64,000 nucleotides of DNA, taken from a virus (taxonomy: Duplodnaviria; Heunggongvirae; Uroviricota; Caudoviricetes). Shown piece after piece: positions 6,566 through 56,052 of this stretch. Every line of letters starts with the position of its first letter. Position 1 is the stretch's first letter. Below the pieces are notes generated by a model that ran no database searches, was not told the DNA's origin, and worked only from the letters and a program-made list of their open reading frames with translations. The position numbers and the translations under genes were made by a program. The stretch lies in the IMG/VR virus record IMGVR_UViG_3300021431_000008; one strand, 5' to 3'.

Positions 6566-9500
6566 TTAATCGCCTCCCTCATTAATTTCATTAAAATTCT
6601 TGAATTCTTTCTTTAGTATTTCATAAGAAATTCCAAGCTCTTTAGCCACAGTTGATGGAGCCATGCCAGAGTTCAGCATAATTCTCGCTCTCGACTTAGT
6701 CGAAGCCGGAATTGTGGCCTTTTGTCTCGGCAGTGCGCGCTGCTTAAGTTTTTCTTTGTCCGAATACCGAATGACCTGCTTGAATTTCTCACTGGAAATG
6801 GCACCGGCCTGAATAGCATCCCATTCGCGATCACTGAGCACGATCTGAAACCGTTTTTCATGAGTTCCGCCTCGCACAGCGTCTCTCGCATCAGCTAGGG
6901 CCTTCGAAGCGAGCTTCTTTCGCTTATCGAGATTGTCTTTCTCTTTCAACGTCGGATCTGCTGCAATCTTGGCATCCATCACACTGCTGGCAAGCATCTG
7001 TGCCTGACGTTCTTTCGGAGCTTCAAGTGCTGCAAGATCTAATTTCTTCGTTAAAGTTCCGTCCTTACCGACAACATCCGCATAAGTTTTCTTCGCTGTA
7101 GAATTCTCATCCATCGTTCCAGCTGCTCGTGCCTCTTTGCGAGCTTCATTCGCCAATGCTTTCAAACGATTGGCGTGATCTGCATAGATTTCTTCCATGT
7201 AATAACCGGAAGAAAGCTCATGAGCATCCTTAACGGCTGCCATCTTTTCAGTTTCCTGAGTCGCTTTCTTAATTTTTCCGGTATTTCGATATACAGGTTT
7301 ACCGGATTCATACAAAGCCAACTCCTCGGCTGTCATCTTAGCAGGATCTGTAATCTTCTTCCGCTCTGGGTATGTCCGATTTGTATTACGATAGATTACT
7401 TCACCATTCTTATAGCGTTCATACTCATCGGGAGTCAGCTTCGACGAATTCTTCTTTCCACCACTTTCCAGATACTCTTTGTATTCCTCGTCGCTCATCG
7501 GCTTTGTGCCGTATACTTCTTTCCGTGCCGGAATATCGGCGCGACCTTTGGCCTTGGAAATAAGTGTTGCGGCGCCACCTTTTTCTTTTCCCTGATAACG
7601 AAGTCGTAGTTCGGCAATACCATTGTCGATCTCGGACTGTTGCCAATCCAGATTATGCTTTTCGGCGTCGATAACGACCATGGAATGTTTAACGGCACGT
7701 GTAATCTCGTCCTCATTGCAGCCTATAATCTGCATATCGGTAATAAGGTTAGAAACTTTTCCCATTTCAGCGCCCTTATTGAAGCCGTCACCGCGTTTCG
7801 TTCCATCGCCTTTGCCGGTACGCACCGGATCATCAGGCGATCTAGAATACATTTCGGAAGGATCAAAATCCTTAAGGCCATCGAGAGGCGGACGAGTCTG
7901 TAGTTTCTGTCCAACGGTCGGAATAACAAGAACAGTATCGCCGTCATAGTCGGCACCTGATAACTGTTTTGCAACCGTTGAATTAATGCCAATTGCATGT
8001 GCAGGCGAAGTTCCAAGTGTTTCTTTTCCTTCCGGATTATCATTATTTACAATAAGCCGTGGAATCTCGAAGCGTCCGGCATGTGGATGACGAACCAGAA
8101 TTACTTCTTCACCATTCTCATAGGCAGGTGCATAAACCTCATTGTCTTTCAGACTCGGAACCGGTAAAATTGCGAACGATGCTTGTCTGGGTAAAGCCGC
8201 TGCTTTCAAATGCACAGCCGCGGCATCACAGTTATCAGCAAATTCTTCAAGAAACTCTTTCTTTAATGTAGGATTCGTCAAAGAGCGGTACTCTTCAAAC
8301 TCGTCCTTCATTTCCCCGTAACGAATATCCAGCTGCTTTTTAGCCACAACCGGAAGCTGTTTGGAAAGGAACTGCGACGAGAGGTTCTTCTGCCAACGAT
8401 CCCAGTCTTCGTCATCGTTCACGATATTAATCGGTGAAGTGTGACTCTTTCCATTGGCGTCTGTGTACTCCCATTGTCTGAAGGAAGCTCCAAATGGATT
8501 CTGACTATCGATCTCTCCGTACTGATCTTTCTTCATCTTTTTCAGAACGGAGTTATCGCCGTCGCCGATCATCGGTGTACCTTCATGCTTATTGGTATTG
8601 AAAACGATGTCGACTCCTTCCGGCATTTTCTTTGGATCTCCGTAAATCGCCATACCTTTCAGATAATGAGTTCCATCAACACCAATTCGAACCTGTGCAT
8701 AATTGCGATTTCCTAAAGAAAGATCCTCCGTTCCGGGACGAATCTCAATTACACCGTCTTTTTCCTGACCACCGCCAGGTTTGCCAGTATTGTAATTAAT
8801 CGCAACACGACTGGAATCGATACTCGGAATCGGTTTACGAATCTTTGCTTCTTCCCCATAATTTTCAAAGTAGAGGCCATCAGGAGTTGTAATTTGACTT
8901 AAATGCTCTTTTAGATCCTTCGTCGTTGTATTTCCATCGCAAAGTACTTTTAATGAAGTAAACTGCTTAGGATTCGTTACCTGATGAAGATCATAATTCA
9001 AGACATTATAGCCTTCGTCCTTTAAATAAAGGAGCGCGGCATGTAACTGCTGGTCGCTGATGTTCAACTGCCTTCCAACGCCTTCGCCAACATCCAGATA
9101 AGGCTTTGTTTTAAGCATTTCTGCCAGATTACTGGCAATAATTTCAGTCTTATTCTCGCGACGCTTCTTGGTCGGATCCAGATAGTTGCGAACGGTTCCT
9201 TCCGAAACGCCAAGTCTTTTTGCAATTTCCGTATTCGAATGGCCGTCATCACGCCATTTAATCGCCTGTCTCTGGTTCTCGACGTCCCGCTTTTCACGAT
9301 AGCGTCTTCGGATCTCACGATAGTCAGTGGTGCTCATCCCAAAAGCGGCAGCAACCTCTTTTTCGCTCAGACCCTGTTTGTGAAGTTCATCGGCTCTTTG
9401 GAGCCAATTCCGGTGTCGCTGCGGATTCTTACCGGAACCCCACGGATAGCGTCCAGAGTGTCTCGGAGTTCCGTAATGCGCAATAAATTCTTTTCGGTAC

Positions 9501-9688
9501 TGGCCGGTGGTTTCGTCAAAAACGTTCCTTTCTTCATAAATAAGACCGGTTCCATCGAAATATCCAGCGCCGCTCGAATGGATCAGCACAGCTTCGCTAA
9601 GTTCGTCGTAAAGTTCAGGCGACGGAGACGCCAGATACTCATCAATGTATTCCTTAGGCCAATCCTTGAAAATATCCAGCTCATCCAT
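6566..9688 (-). CDS. single-polypeptide two-barrel RNA polymerase (YonO-like), with N- and C-terminal sigma-region-4-like HTH modules
   Basis: aa ~330-375 ...YGDPKKMPEGVDIVFNTNKHEGTPMIGDG resembles the RNAP beta DPBB (EDMPY..GTPVDIVLNPLGVPSRMN). aa ~525-590 ILVRHPHAGRFEIP...SPAHAIGINSTVAKQLSGADYDGDTVLVIP resembles beta' (RQPTLHRLGIQAF...NADFDGDQMAVHVP) with the catalytic DxDGD. HTHs: HSNTEIAKRLGVSEGTVRNYL near the N-terminus and APSTVAKELGISYEILKKEF at the C-terminus. GGGAGG RBS; start codon shares one nt with the stop of the upstream nuclease gene. Confidence 0.65.
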   Translation of the reverse strand: MDELDIFKDWPKEYIDEYLASPSPELYDELSEAVLIHSSGAGYFDGTGLIYEERNVFDETTGQYRKEFIAHYGTPRHSGRYPWGSGKNPQRHRNWLQRADELHKQGLSEKEVAAAFGMSTTDYREIRRRYREKRDVENQRQAIKWRDDGHSNTEIAKRLGVSEGTVRNYLDPTKKRRENKTEIIASNLAEMLKTKPYLDVGEGVGRQLNISDQQLHAALLYLKDEGYNVLNYDLHQVTNPKQFTSLKVLCDGNTTTKDLKEHLSQITTPDGLYFENYGEEAKIRKPIPSIDSSRVAINYNTGKPGGGQEKDGVIEIRPGTEDLSLGNRNYAQVRIGVDGTHYLKGMAIYGDPKKMPEGVDIVFNTNKHEGTPMIGDGDNSVLKKMKKDQYGEIDSQNPFGASFRQWEYTDANGKSHTSPINIVNDDEDWDRWQKNLSSQFLSKQLPVVAKKQLDIRYGEMKDEFEEYRSLTNPTLKKEFLEEFADNCDAAAVHLKAAALPRQASFAILPVPSLKDNEVYAPAYENGEEVILVRHPHAGRFEIPRLIVNNDNPEGKETLGTSPAHAIGINSTVAKQLSGADYDGDTVLVIPTVGQKLQTRPPLDGLKDFDPSEMYSRSPDDPVRTGKGDGTKRGDGFNKGAEMGKVSNLITDMQIIGCNEDEITRAVKHSMVVIDAEKHNLDWQQSEIDNGIAELRLRYQGKEKGGAATLISKAKGRADIPARKEVYGTKPMSDEEYKEYLESGGKKNSSKLTPDEYERYKNGEVIYRNTNRTYPERKKITDPAKMTAEELALYESGKPVYRNTGKIKKATQETEKMAAVKDAHELSSGYYMEEIYADHANRLKALANEARKEARAAGTMDENSTAKKTYADVVGKDGTLTKKLDLAALEAPKERQAQMLASSVMDAKIAADPTLKEKDNLDKRKKLASKALADARDAVRGGTHEKRFQIVLSDREWDAIQAGAISSEKFKQVIRYSDKEKLKQRALPRQKATIPASTKSRARIMLNSGMAPSTVAKELGISYEILKKEFKNFNEINEGGD

Positions 9689-12465: not shown

Positions 12466-15400
12466 TTATTGTGCAAAAGTCGCGAAATCACCATATTGAT
12501 TGATCGCGGCTATTGCGTCGTTCTTAAGTCCCTCGAAGTAACTCAGATCGATCGAGTCCTCAAGGTGACGTTCTTTGACGGTTTCGGCCTCAAGCCAGCG
12601 ATAATCCTTCGAACCAGCTGCATAACCGAACTTTCCGCCATTCTCCCGAACCAGACGACCTCCGCCATGTCCGGGCTTGATCGGGCAAAACAGACCTGCT
12701 TTCCCGACAAAGTGATAATCGTGACACTTTTTGATCTCTTCACGAATTTCGCACAAGCGAATATAATCCTTGTGAAATTCCTCCGAGACGTACTGATCGA
12801 GCTTTTTGTCTGAAATATCTGTCAGAACCGGATTGAAGCCGTCCGTCAGATTCTTATCATTCTCATCTGTAAGCTCAAACTGCACTTTATGCCACTTCTT
12901 GACAAGTTTGTCCTCTTCCTTCTCCAGAAGCTCCGACGAAGGCAGTTTCTCGTCCATATCCAAATATAAACCGAGACCGACCTTTACCGTCTGTGTCACG
13001 CACAGGTCATAAAAGCCAATCTCGTCATGGCTGAACAGAGTCTTGAATTCATAGGGAGAACTGTCTTCCTTGAACTGGTCGCCGGTTCCCTCCCATTTTC
13101 CTGCCGATTTGCCGTTCTCCGGATCGTTGGTGTACTTACAAATATAAACTGCGTTATTGACGAGACAGATCTTCTCGAACTTATGCTCGATTTCAAAGGT
13201 GTATCCGAACTTCTTGCCATAATCCATGACAAAGTTGTAGATCTTCTCGTCGGGGTTTGCGATCTTGATGGAATCAGTCTTCACATGAATGACCCGATAG
13301 CCCTGATCCTTGACTTTCAGCATCAGATCAATCATGAATAGTGCTCCGCGCTTTGCCACCCAGTTATCGTCGTTCCGAGGATCTCTTAGACGATTCGTAA
13401 AATGAGCCGCTGTAAGGCCGTAAACGCTATTGATTGCGATCTTCAGCGCTTTCGAGAGCTGTTTGGCATCTTCATCAGACGTCAGGTACGGAGCCAGAAT
13501 TCCGTTATAGAGCGAACGGACCCAGTCGTAGTCCTTATGCTTGATATGCAGACGAATATCCAGCAGCATCTTGAAGTTCTCAGTGTAAGGCCCAAAGCCA
13601 TTCTCAGCAATCAAAGACGAAGGATGGTGTGATGCCGAGTCGTAGCACTCGGAATATCCATACATACCCCAGTTAGCAAAGACAAAGCCGCCTTCGCCAG
13701 GGTCATAGCCCTTATACCAGCTCTTACCGGAGATCATCGTGCAACGATAGTAGGTCTTGCCTTCAACAGGAACCTCGTCTTTGGTCTTGTTGTACTTGCC
13801 GGAAATATCCAGCTCATAGAACTCGAACCTCTTCGGGTTACAGGTCGGCAGCATATCGTCTACGACGACCATATAGCGCTCCTTCGGGAAGCCATACGGT
13901 GAGAACTCATAACCCGGGAACAGTTTCGACAGATCAGGCTTAACAAACATCGCCTGCGGGTTTTTCTCGTTTCCAACGATCAGCTTCGTAGTAAGCGTAT
14001 TTGTCGAGTCATTGACGGTTGAACCGGGGCCTCTCAGCGCATTAGCCAACTCCACCAGAATTTCTCTGGCCCGGAAGTCCGACTGATTGGCATAGAACAC
14101 CTGCTCTGTCGCGATAACGTCGTTACAGCAATATTCCGCTACGCGTTTCCAGAGATTCTGCGGCACAGGCTTATCCCATGGCAGGCCTGCTTCATCGTGA
14201 CGAATATCCACGCCCTGCTTCTGTAACTGGATCTCCCACTTCTTAAGCCCCTTCTTATCGGAGCAGAAGTCGAAAATATCCGTGTAGCTGAGATTCTTCG
14301 ACTCATTGATCGTCCAATCATTACGGCCCTTTGGAGCGTTGATGATGTTCTGCGAACGAGTAAAGAGTTCAAAGATCGAATCGCCGCGAATTCTGGCATA
14401 GCAAATATGATTATCGTATCCGAGATTATTAAAACCGATCATGTTGTACGACTGGAACACACGCAGCACTTCATTCGGCTCCGGGTTAATCATCGTAATG
14501 CAATCCTGACCCATCGGTTTATAGACAAGAACGAACAGGTTCGGAAAGACCTCGGTATCGAAGAAGGCAATCTTCTTCTCTCCTTCTTTCGGCTCTACCC
14601 ATTCGGACTCTTCTTCGCTCTTATAAGGGAAACTCTCAGCCTTGTCCAAGCACTGAAGCGAATGATTGTGCGAAGCAGCGGCAAACGCCAGCACCTGAGG
14701 CTTCAGTTCACTCAGGTCATACTTCATCCCGCTCTCATAGGCCTCGTTCAAAACCTTCCCGATATAATCGACGCAACATACTGTCGAAAACGGGGAGATC
14801 TCCTTACGCAAAGCCTTTCTGACAGCAGCAAGCAAGTGCTTCTGATCTTCTATAGTGTACTCATTTACCGTTTTCGGATTCTCCTTTCTCAAAGGTAGAC
14901 CGGAACTAATCGTCGCAATGGGAATATCATTGCAGCGGGTCAGCTTCCTCCTCAAGCTGGCCTTTCCGGTATAGAACTTGATCTCGACGTCGTCTTCATA
15001 GATCGGCAGAACCTTCGAAATGTCACCGGTATAAATATAAGTCAGGTGAATCCCGGCTCCGCTCTTGCTTAGCTCTGCATAGGTAGGAGGCCACTTGGAT
15101 GCAGCCTTCATGTTGAGCTCCAATGACTTCTTTCCTGTCTTCGGATCCTTCTTGTCGAAGTCAACAAAACAGAACTGCTCAGGACATCTAAGATAGTGAA
15201 GCTCTGCCGTATTCAGATCCTTCAGAATCGTCTGGCAATCGTCCCACGGAACAGATGGCCGGTCGCTTCCGTCCTCCTTAATATAAGCATACTGAGCAGG
15301 CCAGTCTGAACCGATCTTATCCAGGATACTTTCTGTGGTGTTGAACTGGAGCCAACTGTCATTACTCTCTTTACTTTTCTTGTCTTTCTTCTCAGATCCG

Positions 15401-16695
15401 GCCGTTTCATCAAACTTTTCGATTCTTAAACCAGTATAAATATTTCTCTTGGGTTCGCCATGATAGTAACCACGCTCTTTGTAAACCAGAAAATAATTCT
15501 TAAGTTCTTCTTTTACGATTCTCTTGGAATAAGGATAAGGCACTTTTGCATCATCACAATACACACGATACTTAAACCAAATATCATCTAACAGTAACGA
15601 CTCCTCGCCTTTAAGCCATTCGTAATTTTCGAACATGAAGTTATAGAAATCGTTCGTCGCCGACATCATGCTAAGCGGAACATAATCGTCATAACAATGA
15701 GGATCTTCATTGTATACATCGAGACAATACGCTGCGATCGCCCCGAGCTCAAATCCTATGTTCTTCTTAAGCTGTATATAACGCCGATTCGGAATCTTGT
15801 TTCCGGTAGGTGAAATATCGATCAGTCGTCTAAGAAGACCGGACTTGGAATCCGTAATTTTCACAGGCGAATTCGTAGCAATGAAGAGCATCGTCTGAAT
15901 GCGCATCTCATACTTACTTTTAAACTTTTCGTTAATCGTCAAGGTTTCGTGCGAAACCAATGCGTTCAGTCGAGTGTTTGTTTCAATTCTACTCAACTGA
16001 CCATCCGGATCGATTGCTACGATCGGATTTGACTTAAACGATTCAAGAGCAAAGTCTGATGATCCGCTTCCCAAGGCTGCTGCTTCAAAATGTCCGCAAT
16101 AACCTTCAAACAAATTTTCTATAATTTCAAGTATTGTACCTTTACCGCATCCAGGGGCACCATAAAATACGAAGAACTTCTGAATCCAACGAGAATCACC
16201 ATTTACGATAGACCCTATAGCCCATTCAATCTTATGGCGTTCTTCAGGAGAATATAATGTTCCGACAAGCTCATTCCAATTGTCAATACTTCCATGTTCG
16301 AGGGCATACGGAACACACTTCGATGAATAATCTTCACGTTTCGGAACAGTATTCATAAACGTCAACGATTCATCGAGAGGGTGATAATTATCGCTTGTCT
16401 GTTTTGTTACATACTTTCGCCACTTATCGATGCTTCCGGAATCACTGTCCCACATATAAGCAACGTCAATATTATCGTAATCGCCTTTACGCTTTTCTTT
16501 ATACTCTTCAAGTTCCGCATCGATCAGGTCAATAACATCATCCCATTGCGTAGACCAGCGTTCATTACGTTCGTCCCAAATAGCATAAAAATCTCCGCCG
16601 CGAATCATAAGATCTTTACTTTGTTTTGTAATGAATTTCGGATAGACCAATGCCGGTTGTCCTGCTTTCTGCGGAATGCGCAAAGCTGGTTTCAT
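12466..16695 (-). CDS. fused replicase: D5N-like/SF3 helicase + AEP primase-like motifs + family-B DNA polymerase (3'-5' exonuclease and polymerase domains)
   Basis: P-loop FVFYGAPGCGKGT (aa ~177-187), Walker B IVAIDPDGQ, motif C FIATNSP. CFVDFDKKD and SGAGIHLTY (AEP DxD / SGxGxH). ExoI AFFDTEVFPNLF, ExoII GFNNLGYDN, ExoIII YCCNDVIATE. PolB motif B KIAINSVYG, motif C IHVKTDSI. Confidence 0.8.
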   Translation of the reverse strand: MKPALRIPQKAGQPALVYPKFITKQSKDLMIRGGDFYAIWDERNERWSTQWDDVIDLIDAELEEYKEKRKGDYDNIDVAYMWDSDSGSIDKWRKYVTKQTSDNYHPLDESLTFMNTVPKREDYSSKCVPYALEHGSIDNWNELVGTLYSPEERHKIEWAIGSIVNGDSRWIQKFFVFYGAPGCGKGTILEIIENLFEGYCGHFEAAALGSGSSDFALESFKSNPIVAIDPDGQLSRIETNTRLNALVSHETLTINEKFKSKYEMRIQTMLFIATNSPVKITDSKSGLLRRLIDISPTGNKIPNRRYIQLKKNIGFELGAIAAYCLDVYNEDPHCYDDYVPLSMMSATNDFYNFMFENYEWLKGEESLLLDDIWFKYRVYCDDAKVPYPYSKRIVKEELKNYFLVYKERGYYHGEPKRNIYTGLRIEKFDETAGSEKKDKKSKESNDSWLQFNTTESILDKIGSDWPAQYAYIKEDGSDRPSVPWDDCQTILKDLNTAELHYLRCPEQFCFVDFDKKDPKTGKKSLELNMKAASKWPPTYAELSKSGAGIHLTYIYTGDISKVLPIYEDDVEIKFYTGKASLRRKLTRCNDIPIATISSGLPLRKENPKTVNEYTIEDQKHLLAAVRKALRKEISPFSTVCCVDYIGKVLNEAYESGMKYDLSELKPQVLAFAAASHNHSLQCLDKAESFPYKSEEESEWVEPKEGEKKIAFFDTEVFPNLFVLVYKPMGQDCITMINPEPNEVLRVFQSYNMIGFNNLGYDNHICYARIRGDSIFELFTRSQNIINAPKGRNDWTINESKNLSYTDIFDFCSDKKGLKKWEIQLQKQGVDIRHDEAGLPWDKPVPQNLWKRVAEYCCNDVIATEQVFYANQSDFRAREILVELANALRGPGSTVNDSTNTLTTKLIVGNEKNPQAMFVKPDLSKLFPGYEFSPYGFPKERYMVVVDDMLPTCNPKRFEFYELDISGKYNKTKDEVPVEGKTYYRCTMISGKSWYKGYDPGEGGFVFANWGMYGYSECYDSASHHPSSLIAENGFGPYTENFKMLLDIRLHIKHKDYDWVRSLYNGILAPYLTSDEDAKQLSKALKIAINSVYGLTAAHFTNRLRDPRNDDNWVAKRGALFMIDLMLKVKDQGYRVIHVKTDSIKIANPDEKIYNFVMDYGKKFGYTFEIEHKFEKICLVNNAVYICKYTNDPENGKSAGKWEGTGDQFKEDSSPYEFKTLFSHDEIGFYDLCVTQTVKVGLGLYLDMDEKLPSSELLEKEEDKLVKKWHKVQFELTDENDKNLTDGFNPVLTDISDKKLDQYVSEEFHKDYIRLCEIREEIKKCHDYHFVGKAGLFCPIKPGHGGGRLVRENGGKFGYAAGSKDYRWLEAETVKERHLEDSIDLSYFEGLKNDAIAAINQYGDFATFAQ

Positions 16696-16744
16696 AAAAT
16701 CCGTAACCTCAAACCTCCTTTCCGGTGAAAAAATTTGCTCATTT

Positions 16745-16980
16745 TCAGTATGTCAATATGTCAAATATGTCAAAAAATTTTCAAGCTTTTATTATAAAAA
16801 TATATTTTTTTCACGCACTAGTTGAAAAAAAAATGACATATTGACATGTTTTGACCCTGTTTTTTTCAATTTTTTGCATTTTTCACCAAAAAATCGTGTG
16901 TTTTTGCGAAAAAACGTGAAAAAATCAACTTTTACAGAAAATTACGGATCGCGTCTATTTTTCACCATTTTTGACATATT
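16745..16980. repeat. iteron-like TTGACAT direct and inverted repeats in an A-tract-rich intergenic region (candidate origin / early promoter cluster)
   Basis: three tandem TGTCAA (rc TTGACA) copies at 16751, 16759 and 16768; opposite-orientation TGACAT copies at 16834, 16842 and 16972 plus ttgacc at 16852; poly-A/T tracts between them; immediately upstream of the replicase start. Confidence 0.55.
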
Positions 16981-17236
16981 AATCGAGTCTGAAATTCTTA
17001 ATTGTGTAATTAATTGCGGCGCTTACGTCGAACGTGACAATTCCGTTTTTGTGCATAATACGCAAAAGCTTTTCATATGTTTCAGGGTTCAGTCGGCACT
17101 CAAACATATAGTTTTTATCAGCACCCTCCATGTCGTCCCACTTATAATTATTATCAATGCTTAAATACATTTCCTTCATTTTCTCCTTTCGAATCACACC
17201 GGATAATGCTCTTCCAGATACGCGTTCATCTGCCAC
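16979..17236 (-). CDS. hypothetical protein
   Basis: 85-aa ORF. Confidence 0.4.
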   Translation of the reverse strand: MADERVSGRALSGVIRKEKMKEMYLSIDNNYKWDDMEGADKNYMFECRLNPETYEKLLRIMHKNGIVTFDVSAAINYTIKNFRLD

Positions 17237-26568: not shown

Positions 26569-27129
26569 TTACTGAAATTCCTTCCACAACATACTCGGCT
26601 GGATTCCGTTATTCTTCTGGTACTTACCGTGTGTATAGTGTACCGGAACGCCAACTTCACCCATACTATCGGTATCGGCAAGTGTATGATAATAGATCTG
26701 TCCGACTTCTACGCCTGGATAAATAATGACGGGCTGCACACAGGAGATTTCCAGTGTCCAATACCCGTCAAATCCGTTATCGCCAAAACCGGCCGTTGCG
26801 TGAATGAATATCCCGAGACGCCCAATGCTTGAACGCCCTTCCAACATGGGAACAAAACCATCCGTGAAAGTCCGCTCCTGTGTTCTTGCCAAATATAGCT
26901 TTCCTGGGATCAGGAGCTTTCCGGCGTTCGGAGAGATTCGTTCGATGGTATACGGCTCCTCTTTCTTCATGTCGAGAATACTGTGGTTATAAGTTAGTAG
27001 CTCATCGGCCAGATGAAGATTATAACTATTCGGATTCAGAAACTTTTTGTCGAACGGATCGATGACGATAGTTCCCTTCTCCACTTCTTCCAGAATCCGA
27101 TTCCCGCTTAGAATGCCGTAATCATTCAC
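26569..27129 (-). CDS. dcd: dCTP deaminase (Dcd/dUTPase-fold)
   Basis: GRSSIGRLGIFIHATAGFGDNGFDGYWTLEISC aligns with Dcd [33 protein letters not shown]; GTG start with GAGGAGG RBS chosen over the in-frame TTG. Confidence 0.75.
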   Translation of the reverse strand: MNDYGILSGNRILEEVEKGTIVIDPFDKKFLNPNSYNLHLADELLTYNHSILDMKKEEPYTIERISPNAGKLLIPGKLYLARTQERTFTDGFVPMLEGRSSIGRLGIFIHATAGFGDNGFDGYWTLEISCVQPVIIYPGVEVGQIYYHTLADTDSMGEVGVPVHYTHGKYQKNNGIQPSMLWKEFQ

Positions 27130-34100: not shown

Positions 34101-34177
34101 TGGTGGACCGTCTGGGACTTGAACCCAGGACCTGAGGTTTATGAGACCACTGCTCTGACCGACTGAGCTAACGGTCC
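34101..34177 (-). tRNA. tRNA-Met (CAT)
   Basis: minus strand GGACCGTTAGCTCAGTCGGTCAGAGCAGTGGTCTCATAAACCTCAGGTCCTGGGTTCAAGTCCCAGACGGTCCACCA; acceptor, D-arm and T-arm pair; anticodon loop CTCATAA; encoded CCA. Confidence 0.8.
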
Positions 34178-34437
34178 ATTTCCATTAGTGGGTGACAAAG
34201 TGCATTGATATAAGCTGTATGCGCTTCTTTTTCGAGCTCTTTGGCTTCCTCCCATTTTTGTTTGTAGATAGATACTTCATAGGCTTGTTCGTATCCCTCG
34301 TTTTCAAGGCATTCTAAGTAACCTTCTAATGCATACCAGCTAATAATATCGTAATCAATCTTTTTGCCATCCCTGAATTTACAGACACATACATTGTCGG
34401 AGTAAGCCTCTTCGATAGTGTATTGTAATTTACTCAT
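34168..34437 (-). CDS. hypothetical protein
   Basis: 89-aa ORF. Confidence 0.45.
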   Translation of the reverse strand: MSKLQYTIEEAYSDNVCVCKFRDGKKIDYDIISWYALEGYLECLENEGYEQAYEVSIYKQKWEEAKELEKEAHTAYINALCHPLMEMDR

Positions 34438-34467
34438 TTTGTTGTCTCCTTTCTAAATCTACGAAAA

Positions 34468-34543
34468 TGGCTGAGACGGCAGGATTTGAACCTGCGAATA
34501 ACGGAGTCAAAGTCCGCTGTGTTACCCACTTCACCACGCCTCA
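34468..34543 (-). tRNA. tRNA-Gln (TTG)
   Basis: minus strand TGAGGCGTGGTGAAGTGGGTAACACAGCGGACTTTGACTCCGTTATTCGCAGGTTCAAATCCTGCCGTCTCAGCCA; anticodon loop CTTTGAC. Confidence 0.75.
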
Positions 34544-34562
34544 AAATATAAGAAAAAAGCAG

Positions 34563-34594
34563 AAGAACTGCAATGAGTCCTTCTGCAATGGAAG
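34563..34594 (-). terminator. rho-independent terminator (GCAGAAG/CTTCTGC stem + T6 on minus)
   Basis: aaaaaagcagaagaactgcaatgagtccttctgc downstream of the 34595..34897 CDS. Confidence 0.6.
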
Positions 34595-34897
34595 TCAGAC
34601 CAAACCGAATCTAAAGTGATCTTTACTCTTTAAGAAATCGTAGAACATAATGTGTTCGGTAGTTTGCTTGTAGTTTGCAAGCTTCGTCAGATCCTTGTAC
34701 TCTCGCCCGACTTCGTAAGAGCCGTCGACCACAATCACTTCCGTAGTATTCAACTGCCGCAGCATTCGATTTGCTGTCTCGCGAATATTCTGGATAGTGA
34801 TCCAGTCGCCTCTCAGATGCCAGGGATTTCCCTGAAGCTGATGAAGCTTATCAAAACCATAGAAATATACCCGATTTTCTTTATTATTTTCATACAT
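34595..34897 (-). CDS. hypothetical protein
   Basis: 100 aa; promoter-like box at 34956..34977 upstream. Confidence 0.5.
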   Translation of the reverse strand: MYENNKENRVYFYGFDKLHQLQGNPWHLRGDWITIQNIRETANRMLRQLNTTEVIVVDGSYEVGREYKDLTKLANYKQTTEHIMFYDFLKSKDHFRFGLV

Positions 34898-34955
34898 TTT
34901 CTTTTCCTCCTATAAAAATTAGTTAGTTTTTTATGTCTGTCTCCTCATAATAGGA

Positions 34956-34977
34956 ATTGTAAAATATACGAAAAAAG
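34956..34977 (-). promoter_or_regulatory. copy of repeated promoter-like box + hairpin
   Basis: attgtaaaatatacgaaaaaag followed by the agagcgaggt...acctcgctct hairpin. Confidence 0.5.
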
Positions 34978-35122
34978 AGCGAGGTAGAGCCTCTCTGGAC
35001 TCTTTGACCTCGCTCTTAAACGACCAGAAAACCTTGAAAAGCTGGTCCATAGCTTCATCCTCGCCTTAATAGCCCCGATCCTTCGCTATGTTTTTCGGCT
35101 TCTTCATTAGAAGCTCCGGTCC

Positions 35123-35207
35123 TGGTACCGCTGAAGGGACTTGAACCCTCATGACTCTCGTCGGCAGATTTTAAGTCTGCTGTGTCTACCTATTCCACCA
35201 CAGCGGC
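35123..35207 (-). tRNA. tRNA-Leu (TAA), type II with long variable arm
   Basis: minus strand GCCGCTGTGGTGGAATAGGTAGACACAGCAGACTTAAAATCTGCCGACGAGAGTCATGAGGGTTCAAGTCCCTTCAGCGGTACCA. Confidence 0.75.
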
Positions 35208-55539: not shown

Positions 55540-55828
55540 AGTCGTTTGTCCGCCCCGTTGGAAGACCTAAAATATAGCGAAGTTTCTCGTTGGATATGTT
55601 GGCAACTCTAAGGCAGGTGCATATAACCTCGAACGGTGCTTTCTTAAAGTATTCAGGTTTTCGCCGGTACCTCCATAAGCTTGACGGATCGCATCCTGCT
55701 ACAAGCGCCAATTCTTCCACAGTTTTACGACTGGATCTCAGATACTCATGGACAACTGAATCGAACTTGTCCATCCGTTTTCTGATTCTTTCAAGTTCTC
55801 GCTCTTCCTCTGAAAAAGTTACTTTCAT
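55529..55828 (-). CDS. hypothetical protein
   Basis: 99-aa ORF. Confidence 0.4.
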   Translation of the reverse strand: MKVTFSEEERELERIRKRMDKFDSVVHEYLRSSRKTVEELALVAGCDPSSLWRYRRKPEYFKKAPFEVICTCLRVANISNEKLRYILGLPTGRTNDYEN

Positions 55829-56052
55829 AACGGCAATCTCCTATTAAAATGTAAAAGATTACCGGCCGGTGAGGACACCATATCACCGAATGGTTACAAT
55901 GTCAAACGAACCATGTCGATATTTGTTGCTAGAATGAAAGAATTATTTTAGCACTGAAATCGACAGCCTCCAAACTTTTATTGCATATATGAAATAATAT
56001 TGTGCAGAATAAAAAAAGAGAAGCTGCGGATCTTGCAGCCTCTCTTCTCTTT

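Follow-up and report, generated by a model that had tools for sequence, protein, structure and literature searches.

The locus and its repeats

The stretch of DNA considered here, 64,000 nucleotides from a tailed gut virus of the class Caudoviricetes (IMG/VR record IMGVR_UViG_3300021431_000008; hereafter the window, meaning that whole stretch), carries nearly all of its genes on the minus strand, among them one for a large helicase-polymerase, the replicase. Immediately upstream of this gene is a 283-bp non-coding spacer (16696-16978) that is examined below as a candidate origin of replication. It is flanked on one side by the replicase gene (12466-16695, minus strand) and on the other by a small gene that ends at 16979; downstream of the replicase follow genes for a single-strand annealing protein, a helicase, an exonuclease and a YonO-like RNA polymerase. 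The 120 nt with the lowest GC content of the entire 64 kb (16764-16883, GC 0.21) are found here. The features on which the following account depends are:

16750-16756, 16758-16764 and 16767-16773, minus strand: proximal iteron set, three tandem copies of TTGACAT
16774-16832, minus strand: AT-rich centre between the inverted iteron sets, a candidate DNA-unwinding element
16833-16839 (ATGACAT), 16841-16847 (TTGACAT) and 16851-16857 (degenerate TTGACCC, with TTGACC at 16851-16856), plus strand: distal inverted iteron set
16858-16970: left arm of phased A/T tracts, with T5-6/A5-6 dyads such as TTTTTTCGCAAAAA
16971-16977, plus strand: outlying seventh copy of the word, TTGACAT, directly after the stop codon of the small gene
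16725-16732 (plus), 16807-16814 (minus), 16879-16886 (minus), 16916-16923 (plus) and 16958-16965 (minus): second repeated word, GTGAAAAA
12466-16704, minus strand: replicase gene; 1409 aa if the ATG at 16695 is taken as the first codon

An earlier note, made from the sequence alone, had described three tandem minus-strand copies of TTGACAT upstream of the replicase, and their positions are borne out: they occupy the interval 55-78 nt before the replicase ATG (16695), with start-to-start distances of 9 and 8 nt. The copies in inverse orientation and the degenerate TTGACC that it listed are likewise present on the plus strand, at 16833-16857 and 16971-16977. An AT-rich tract inside the 120 nt of lowest GC content does separate the two groups (16774-16833), but the tract quoted as doing so (16860-16897) lies elsewhere, past the inner plus-strand copies and short of the outlying one at 16971. 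Read in minus-strand order, the centre consists of a T9 run (16833-16825), CAACTAGTGCGTG, an A7 run (16811-16805) and TATAAT (16796-16791); the inner distal copy adjoins the T-run on the gene strand, and the first T of that run (16833) is common to both. The left arm, which is probably bent or architectural DNA, contains a 28-nt imperfect palindrome (16865-16892 and 16901-16928) made of GTGAAAAA words, five of the six window copies of which are inside the spacer.

With a whole-window expectation of 11 copies, the 13 occurrences of TTGACAT in the window are unexceptional in number, and it is their placement that is striking: a 230-bp part of the spacer holds five of these exact matches (three minus-strand, two plus-strand), together with one copy bearing a single mismatch. 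When the spacer itself was subjected to 5000 dinucleotide-preserving shuffles, the shuffled sequences held a mean of 0.12 copies and a maximum of three, and none of the 5000 reached five. A word-agnostic statistic that allows for the post hoc choice of word, namely the count of the most-repeated 7-mer with at least two G/C, was reached in 11 of the 5000 shuffles. The spacer also contains a perfect 14-nt inverted repeat (16750-16763 and 16834-16847) with 70 nt of GC 0.17 between its arms, and its A/T tracts are phased at approximately 10 bp, with the observed power being reached in 38 of the 5000 shuffles. A generic detector of short-word clusters in both orientations returned this site alone, with no second repeat cluster in the 64-kb window.

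Conservation of the module in related phages

The spacer was compared with 80 IMG/VR loci that encode the replicase, each of 9 kb and designated here by an L number, the locus of the window phage itself being WIN. Approximately 19 of the 80 have a spacer of 100-560 bp (GC 0.17-0.36) upstream of the replicase gene; in the remaining loci, approximately 60, a gene of the phrog_4678 family abuts the replicase gene directly. Where the spacer exists, a common module is recognizable on the gene strand. It begins with two adjacent words of 7-9 nt (spacing 8-10 nt), the inner of which abuts a run of 6-10 T residues, and continues with some 45-70 nt of AT-rich DNA in which ..CGTGA, an A-run and TATA(T)A(A) are often present; next the word recurs one to three times in inverted orientation, and the Shine-Dalgarno sequence comes after a further 25-45 nt. 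The T-run, the ..CGTGA and the A-run of the centre are kept in L071, L001, L002, L004 and L007, and the modules of L002 and L115 have words resembling GTGAAAAA in their left arms. The layout is thus shared while the word itself differs from phage to phage:

TATGTCA (ATGTCA): WIN and L002
TATGACAC: L004
AAGTCA: L071
TTAGTCAA: L001
TTTGTCAA: L044
GTGTCA: L013
GTGGCA: L014 and L007
GTGGGA: L072
ATGGGACAC: L003, 6-9 copies, counted by sub-word
TGGGGAA: L076, 13 copies

Further words among the modules upstream of the replicase are TTTCCCAC and GGGACAC. Each word is almost confined to the module within its own 9-kb locus and is present there in 6-13 copies, and in all, counting both of the genomic positions described below, more than 20 related modules were found with different words in the same layout. 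Since the word differs between phages, the identity of TTGACA with the -35 hexamer in the window phage is a coincidence.

The two arms of the module evolve in concert. In a four-way alignment of the closest relatives the backbone is kept, and the T-to-A change that distinguishes L071 has occurred in both arms. This was generalized by taking the 10 nt that abut the T-run and finding their best reverse-complement match in the right arm: over 17 modules, a left arm matched its own right arm at 7.82 of 10 positions vs 6.68 +/- 0.98 for the right arms of other phages (permutation p ~5e-5). Joint change of this kind would be expected if a single protein reads both sets of sites.

The module at a second genomic position

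In Faecalibacterium phage FP_oengus there is no spacer upstream of the replicase gene. A module is found instead at 26900-27090, between gp52 and an unannotated open reading frame (ORF) of 124 aa, approximately 10 kb downstream of the replicase gene, and it comprises four TGGCCAAAA words, CAC-T6, an AT-rich stretch with TATATATAG, and inverted TTTTGGCCAC. The same alternative position was found in approximately 12 of 90 loci fetched by way of the RNA polymerase, with words that include TGTCAAA, TTGCCAG and GGCCCAC. Other genes follow the module at the two positions, and the proteins encoded upstream are unrelated. Within the FP_oengus clade the word is TGGCCA(A/C) in all variants sampled at the DNA level; among these variants, whose downstream ORFs are 62-100% identical, the words are kept and the intervening spacers drift. 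A candidate origin would accordingly adjoin the initiator gene, as its upstream neighbour, in the window and in some 19 relatives, and lie approximately 10 kb away in contigs of the FP_oengus type. Because of this second location the sequence comparison presents the module as a portable, free-standing element.

The left arms of the FP_oengus clade mostly hold a further element:

L252, L308, L310, L312, L282 and L316, approximately 150-200 nt upstream of the module centre, and FP_oengus (NC_047916) at approximately 26955-26985: dyad TAACG-N6-CGTTA

Its centres vary (tagata, attatt, taaata, aagctg), and its sequence suggests that another DNA-binding protein, a dimer, may bind there.

In the related gut phage MT835485 (L083), the 20 kb to each side of the replicase gene yielded no iteron module. 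The repeat-cluster detector did return matches in MT835485 and in Lactococcus phage P1046, but these were rejected: the former is a switch of the CI/Cro type and the latter a tandem duplication of 120 bp. So far the module can therefore be claimed only for the FP_oengus-like group. The MT835485 switch (6680-6860) is divergent and CI/Cro-like; its operators are 16-nt palindromes (GTTGCATACATGCAAC and variants) and precede a gene of the XRE-type helix-turn-helix (HTH) family.

The replicase and a candidate reader of the words

The replicase matches phrog_4210, "DNA polymerase" (E = 0). Residues 177-290 contain the P-loop of a DUF5906/D5-type helicase and residues ~676-1189 the family-A polymerase region, giving the order N-terminal domain, superfamily 3 (SF3)/D5-like helicase, winged helix, a possible segment like the archaeo-eukaryotic primases (AEP), and family-A DNA polymerase. 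Homologues are annotated as "helicase/polymerase" in FP_oengus and as "DNA primase/polymerase" in many phages of Arthrobacter, Gordonia, Streptomyces and Lactococcus. Residues 1-140 and 331-490 returned no Pfam family. Matches of residues ~501-554 (15034-15195, minus strand) to Prim-Pol/AEP-type primases were very weak and below threshold (E 0.06-0.09).

Translation of the replicase probably starts at an ACG (16704-16702) and not at the annotated ATG at 16695, as judged from the conserved N-terminus and from the spacing to the Shine-Dalgarno sequence GGAGG (16714-16718, minus strand), which is 9 nt from the ACG vs 18 nt from the ATG. The replicases of relatives begin M-(L)-D-F from ATG, GTG or TTG, and ACG-GAY-TTY is found at the aligned start in WIN, L071, L001, L002 and L007; in L071 and L001 no canonical start follows the Shine-Dalgarno sequence until an in-frame ATG further downstream. 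The ACG may keep translation of the replicase very low.

An AlphaFold model of residues 1-490, built from a 45-sequence alignment (mean predicted local distance difference test score of 75.7), places helices at 369-383 and 391-398, the latter as recognition helix, and a beta-hairpin wing at 402-423 directly after the ATPase, which together form a winged helix:

15421-15603, minus strand: predicted winged helix of the replicase, residues ~365-425 (AlphaFold model)

When the modelled residues 1-490 were searched with Foldseek, the match was to PriRep5 of the Staphylococcus aureus pathogenicity island (SaPI) SaPI5 (7ola; E 2e-8, 412 aligned columns, target template-modelling score of 0.54), and further matches were to PriRep1 with double-stranded DNA (7pds), NrS-1, the African swine fever virus PrimPol and poxvirus D5/E5, with entries including 6lrb and 8iqi.

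The domain that reads the words had been supposed in the earlier note to be the N-terminal one, which is probably wrong in detail. Among close relatives two segments of the replicase evolve fast, residues 1-100 and ~351-450, while most others exceed 90% identity; the winged-helix segment is only 47-68% identical. L013 and L014 share a module backbone and differ in word (GTGTCA and GTGGCA), and their replicases are 98% identical over residues 1-100 vs 52% over residues 401-450; residues 1-100 are therefore a poor candidate for the reader. In the clade of the window phage the start of the recognition helix tracks the word, being SKR with TGNCA and PMR with AGTCA. Conversely, ten replicases of the FP_oengus clade (84-100% identity classes) have an identical recognition helix and wing (SRRAFREELMNYF ... 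NGERVRSYYSGF) with variable neighbouring helices; six of the ten come from contigs in which the module was read and keeps TGGCCA, the pairing of replicase with module having been made through the ORF downstream of the module, as none shared contigs by way of the polymerase loci. Across 19 loci, similarity of the words correlated with identity of the winged helix after the rest of the protein was controlled for (partial Mantel r 0.30, p 0.0016), and no such signal was obtained for residues 1-100 or for the neighbouring 171-aa protein of phrog_4678. On the combined evidence of model and alignment, the winged helix is the leading candidate for the reader of the words, though not demonstrated to be so.

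Relationship to known origins

The origins of SaPIs comprise 6-12 penta- or hexanucleotide iterons beside rep, with an AT-rich region in the middle and at least two iterons per side in opposite directions (PMC9371898). The helicase loads itself, probably as two hexamers on either side, and recognizes the iterons through a winged helix of its C-terminal domain (PMC9371898). Every sequence-level feature of the origin so described is found in the present module: opposed, element-specific sets of at least two iterons per side flank an AT-rich region, which in the window and some 19 relatives is beside a gene for a predicted SF3/D5-type helicase, here with three copies (16750-16773, minus strand) and two or three copies (16833-16857, plus strand) around 16774-16832. 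The predicted fold of the N-terminal half of the replicase agrees, matching PriRep5 (7ola) and PriRep1 (7pds). There are differences: the SaPI origin is immediately downstream of the gene, whereas the module is upstream of it, or 10 kb away in the FP_oengus type; its words are 7-9 nt long vs 5-6 nt; helicase and winged helix make up the N-terminal third of a 1409-aa protein that runs on into a family-A DNA polymerase; and the carrier is a tailed phage of 60-95 kb, not a satellite, with a replicase of only ~14% identity to PriRep.

More distant parallels are offered by other replicons. Satellite phage P4 has octamer iterons (TGTTCACC), direct and inverted, that are bound by a domain of its alpha protein C-terminal to the SF3 helicase; its cis regions are two and separated (ori and crr), and alpha has a primase and no polymerase. 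The module resembles it in its short direct and inverted iterons and in being associated with a multifunctional SF3-helicase replication protein, but differs in lacking a second repeat cluster in this window and in that the helicase is fused to a polymerase. With papillomavirus E1 and the large T antigen of simian virus 40, inverted words near an AT-rich tract direct two opposed SF3 hexamers. The inverted short words next to an AT-rich tract are common to these origins and the module; in the viral systems, however, the origin-binding domain is N-terminal to the helicase and of another fold, and the words are central with the AT tract to one side. Finally, the iterons of plasmid initiators such as RepA, pi and TrfA are direct repeats of 17-22 bp at a spacing of ~22 bp (two turns), usually accompanied by DnaA boxes, and the initiator is often autoregulated. 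They share with the module the repeated words next to an AT-rich unwinding element and differ from its words, which are shorter (7-9 nt), more closely spaced (8-10 nt), arranged in inverted sets and not accompanied by a DnaA box; none with up to two mismatches was found between 15782 and 17049, a range that includes the spacer.

Proposed function and alternative explanations

The comparative and structural evidence presented above favours the view that the spacer (16696-16978) is probably the replication origin of the phage, of the SaPI/P4 type and served by the adjacent replicase. Of the two readings that the earlier note had offered, an origin beside its initiator is thus the one that is supported, and stacked promoters the one that is not. 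We infer that the iterons (ATGTCAA/TTGACAT, seven copies), arranged in two opposed sets around the AT-rich centre of ~60 bp, would be bound by the winged helix behind the SF3 ATPase of the replicase, and that binding from two sides, together with bending at the phased A/T tracts of the left arm, would melt the TATA-rich centre and so confer origin activity. Two helicase rings, the helicase being fused in this phage to the DNA polymerase, would then load in opposite directions. Given that the module is just upstream of the replicase gene, occupancy of the iterons may also throttle expression of the replicase.

Several observations weigh against this assignment. Approximately 60 of the 80 relatives lack the spacer upstream of the replicase, and among them a candidate origin has been located only for the clade of the FP_oengus type. 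The analysis of GC skew that had been suggested as a check was monotonic over the window, and because the genes are co-oriented, neither GC nor AT skew lends support either way. The nearly universal TATA(T)A(A)G element of the modules is in gene orientation and would fit a promoter too. L013 and L014, which differ in word, are also only 50% identical over residues 1101-1150 of the replicase, well outside the winged helix. The partial Mantel correlation is fragile, falling to r 0.16 (p 0.09) when the close trio L076-78 and L073 are removed, and WIN and L002 share the word ATGTCA with different predicted wings; for these last two reasons the winged helix is put forward only as a candidate reader.

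The rival that survives best, although unlikely, is a regulated middle promoter, in which the TATAAT of the centre would be the -10 element for the DNA-metabolism operon and the inverted words on its flanks would serve as operators to which a repressor or activator of the phage binds, perhaps the replicase itself in autoregulation, with looping or a roadblock as the mode of action. The spacer does contain one weak promoter-like pair, in its centre, and no other: GTGCGT (16818-16813) and TATAAT (16796-16791), separated by 16 nt on the minus strand. A weak -35-like element, a spacer of 16-17 nt and TATAAT at a fixed distance from the T-run recur in WIN, L071 and L004; a promoter of this kind would have its start site directly before the proximal words and its -35 element directly after the distal ones. 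The TATA(T)A(A)G element noted above has the orientation that such a promoter would require, and in both of its genomic positions the module precedes genes for DNA metabolism or RNA polymerase. Against this, a sigma-A matrix scored the forward strand above the reverse in only seven of 14 modules, with a mean difference of -0.9 bits, and some 60 of the 80 relatives express the replicase without any spacer, its gene abutting the one upstream. Moreover, 9-13 words over 300 bp (L003, L044, L076 and L142) would be an uncommon arrangement of operators; the module is not accompanied from phage to phage by any small gene for a DNA-binding protein, and the 171-aa phrog_4678 protein does not covary with the words; and a true CI/Cro-type switch, that of MT835485, is built differently, from 16-nt palindromes. 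It is possible, all the same, that the sites of a replication origin also regulate transcription of the replicase operon.

Two further proposals involve the RNA polymerase of the phage:

6566-9688, minus strand: YonO-like two-barrel RNA polymerase, 1040 aa (phrog_4291, E 5e-302), homologue of FP_oengus gp55

Residues 136-170 of this protein match Sigma70_r4_2 and HTH_23. A second HTH-like motif lies just upstream of them and another at the C-terminus, and all are kept in eight diverse homologues. In many IMG/VR contigs (loci L095-L174) no more than a few hundred bases separate the polymerase gene from the end of the contig, which could reflect the terminus of the genome or else a boundary, of assembly or of a prophage, that recurs in this phage group.

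In the first proposal, which we regard as improbable, the module would be a dual element: the winged helix would license the site through the iterons, and the TATA(T)A-G centre would be the start for the YonO-like RNA polymerase, whose conserved HTH of the sigma region 4 type might recognize the core that the modules have in common. The helicase-polymerase, in which no primase is clearly recognizable, would take this RNA as its primer, by a priming logic like that of T7 or mitochondria assembled from unrelated parts. In the second, slightly more doubtful still, the module would be a priming site or promoter for this single-chain polymerase alone, with RNA starting there for downstream expression or for the priming of DNA synthesis. 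The region-4-like match speaks for it, as do the identity of the present word with the -35 hexamer read by bacterial region 4 and the very weak AEP signal of the replicase. The polymerase HTH was nevertheless rejected as the reader of the words, which it cannot follow: its recognition helix is nearly invariant (SEGTVRN/TEGTVRN) in WIN (ATGTCA), L071 (AAGTCA) and L007 (GTGGCA), there being at least four pairs of polymerase and module on the same contig among the matches listed. The words also occur in both orientations, and neither they nor the conserved core recurs elsewhere in the 64 kb, which is unexpected for transcription of many genes; without such recurrence, the core and centre motifs are not a general promoter motif.

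That the module is a packaging (pac) site, in which, as in SPP1, boxes bound by the terminase small subunit would lie on either side of a bent stretch where the DNA is cleaved, is very unlikely. Short boxes on both sides of a centre, with phased A-tracts, do resemble the SPP1 layout of pacL, pacC and pacR, but the module is beside replication genes and not terminase, that of FP_oengus is 10 kb upstream of terL, and words and replicase winged helix are constant or changed together wherever this could be checked. Nor was a structured RNA detected in the spacer with Rfam, the best matches of 14-17 bits being far below gathering thresholds of 48-60.

Least credible of all is the proposal that the words are stacked promoters of the host sigma-A, each TTGACAT supplying a -35 element: the hexamer is indeed the -35 consensus, and the window does contain, at another place, an ordinary promoter that uses it (TTGACA, 17 nt and TATGGT; 55904-55876, minus strand), but neither a consensus scan nor direct reading found a -10 hexamer 16-18 nt downstream of any TTGACAT word in the spacer (the best sigma-A matches there use other hexamers, at 9 of 12 positions), half of the copies are directed away from gene starts, and relatives carry unrelated words at the same positions. 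The ordinary promoter belongs to a unit that looks like one of host type: on the minus strand at 55870-56045, a hairpin terminator (ggctgcaagatccgcagc and a T-run) is followed by the TTGACA promoter upstream of a gene starting at 55827, which shows what a real sigma-A promoter with this hexamer is like in this genome.

Other features of the window

16979-17236, minus strand: small gene between the phrog_4678 gene and the module, 85 aa from GTG as listed

This gene has an alternative start, an ATG with its own Shine-Dalgarno sequence near 17183, that would give a product of ~67 aa; it returned no family match and is without counterpart in the closest relatives L071, L001 and L002, where the module begins directly after the phrog_4678 stop codon. 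Three tRNA genes (Met-CAT, Gln-TTG and Leu-TAA) cluster at 34101-35207 on the minus strand, amid small ORFs of the early region.

Implications

The replicase family is widespread, with more than 1000 homologues in metagenomes in addition to FP_oengus and approximately 250 actinobacterial and lactococcal phages, and limited literature searches returned no described origin for any phage that encodes a member of it. Were the module only a promoter with operators, the finding would be an ordinary one. If it is an origin, origins could be located by a simple sequence signature in a large, uncultured group of phages from gut and rumen, and the related modules would constitute a natural series of matched variants of word and winged helix in which to follow the drift of initiator specificity. 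Initiator, helicase and polymerase would then be combined in one polypeptide acting on a SaPI-like origin, and the pair of module and replicase gene offers a candidate minimal replicon for hosts of the Clostridia type.

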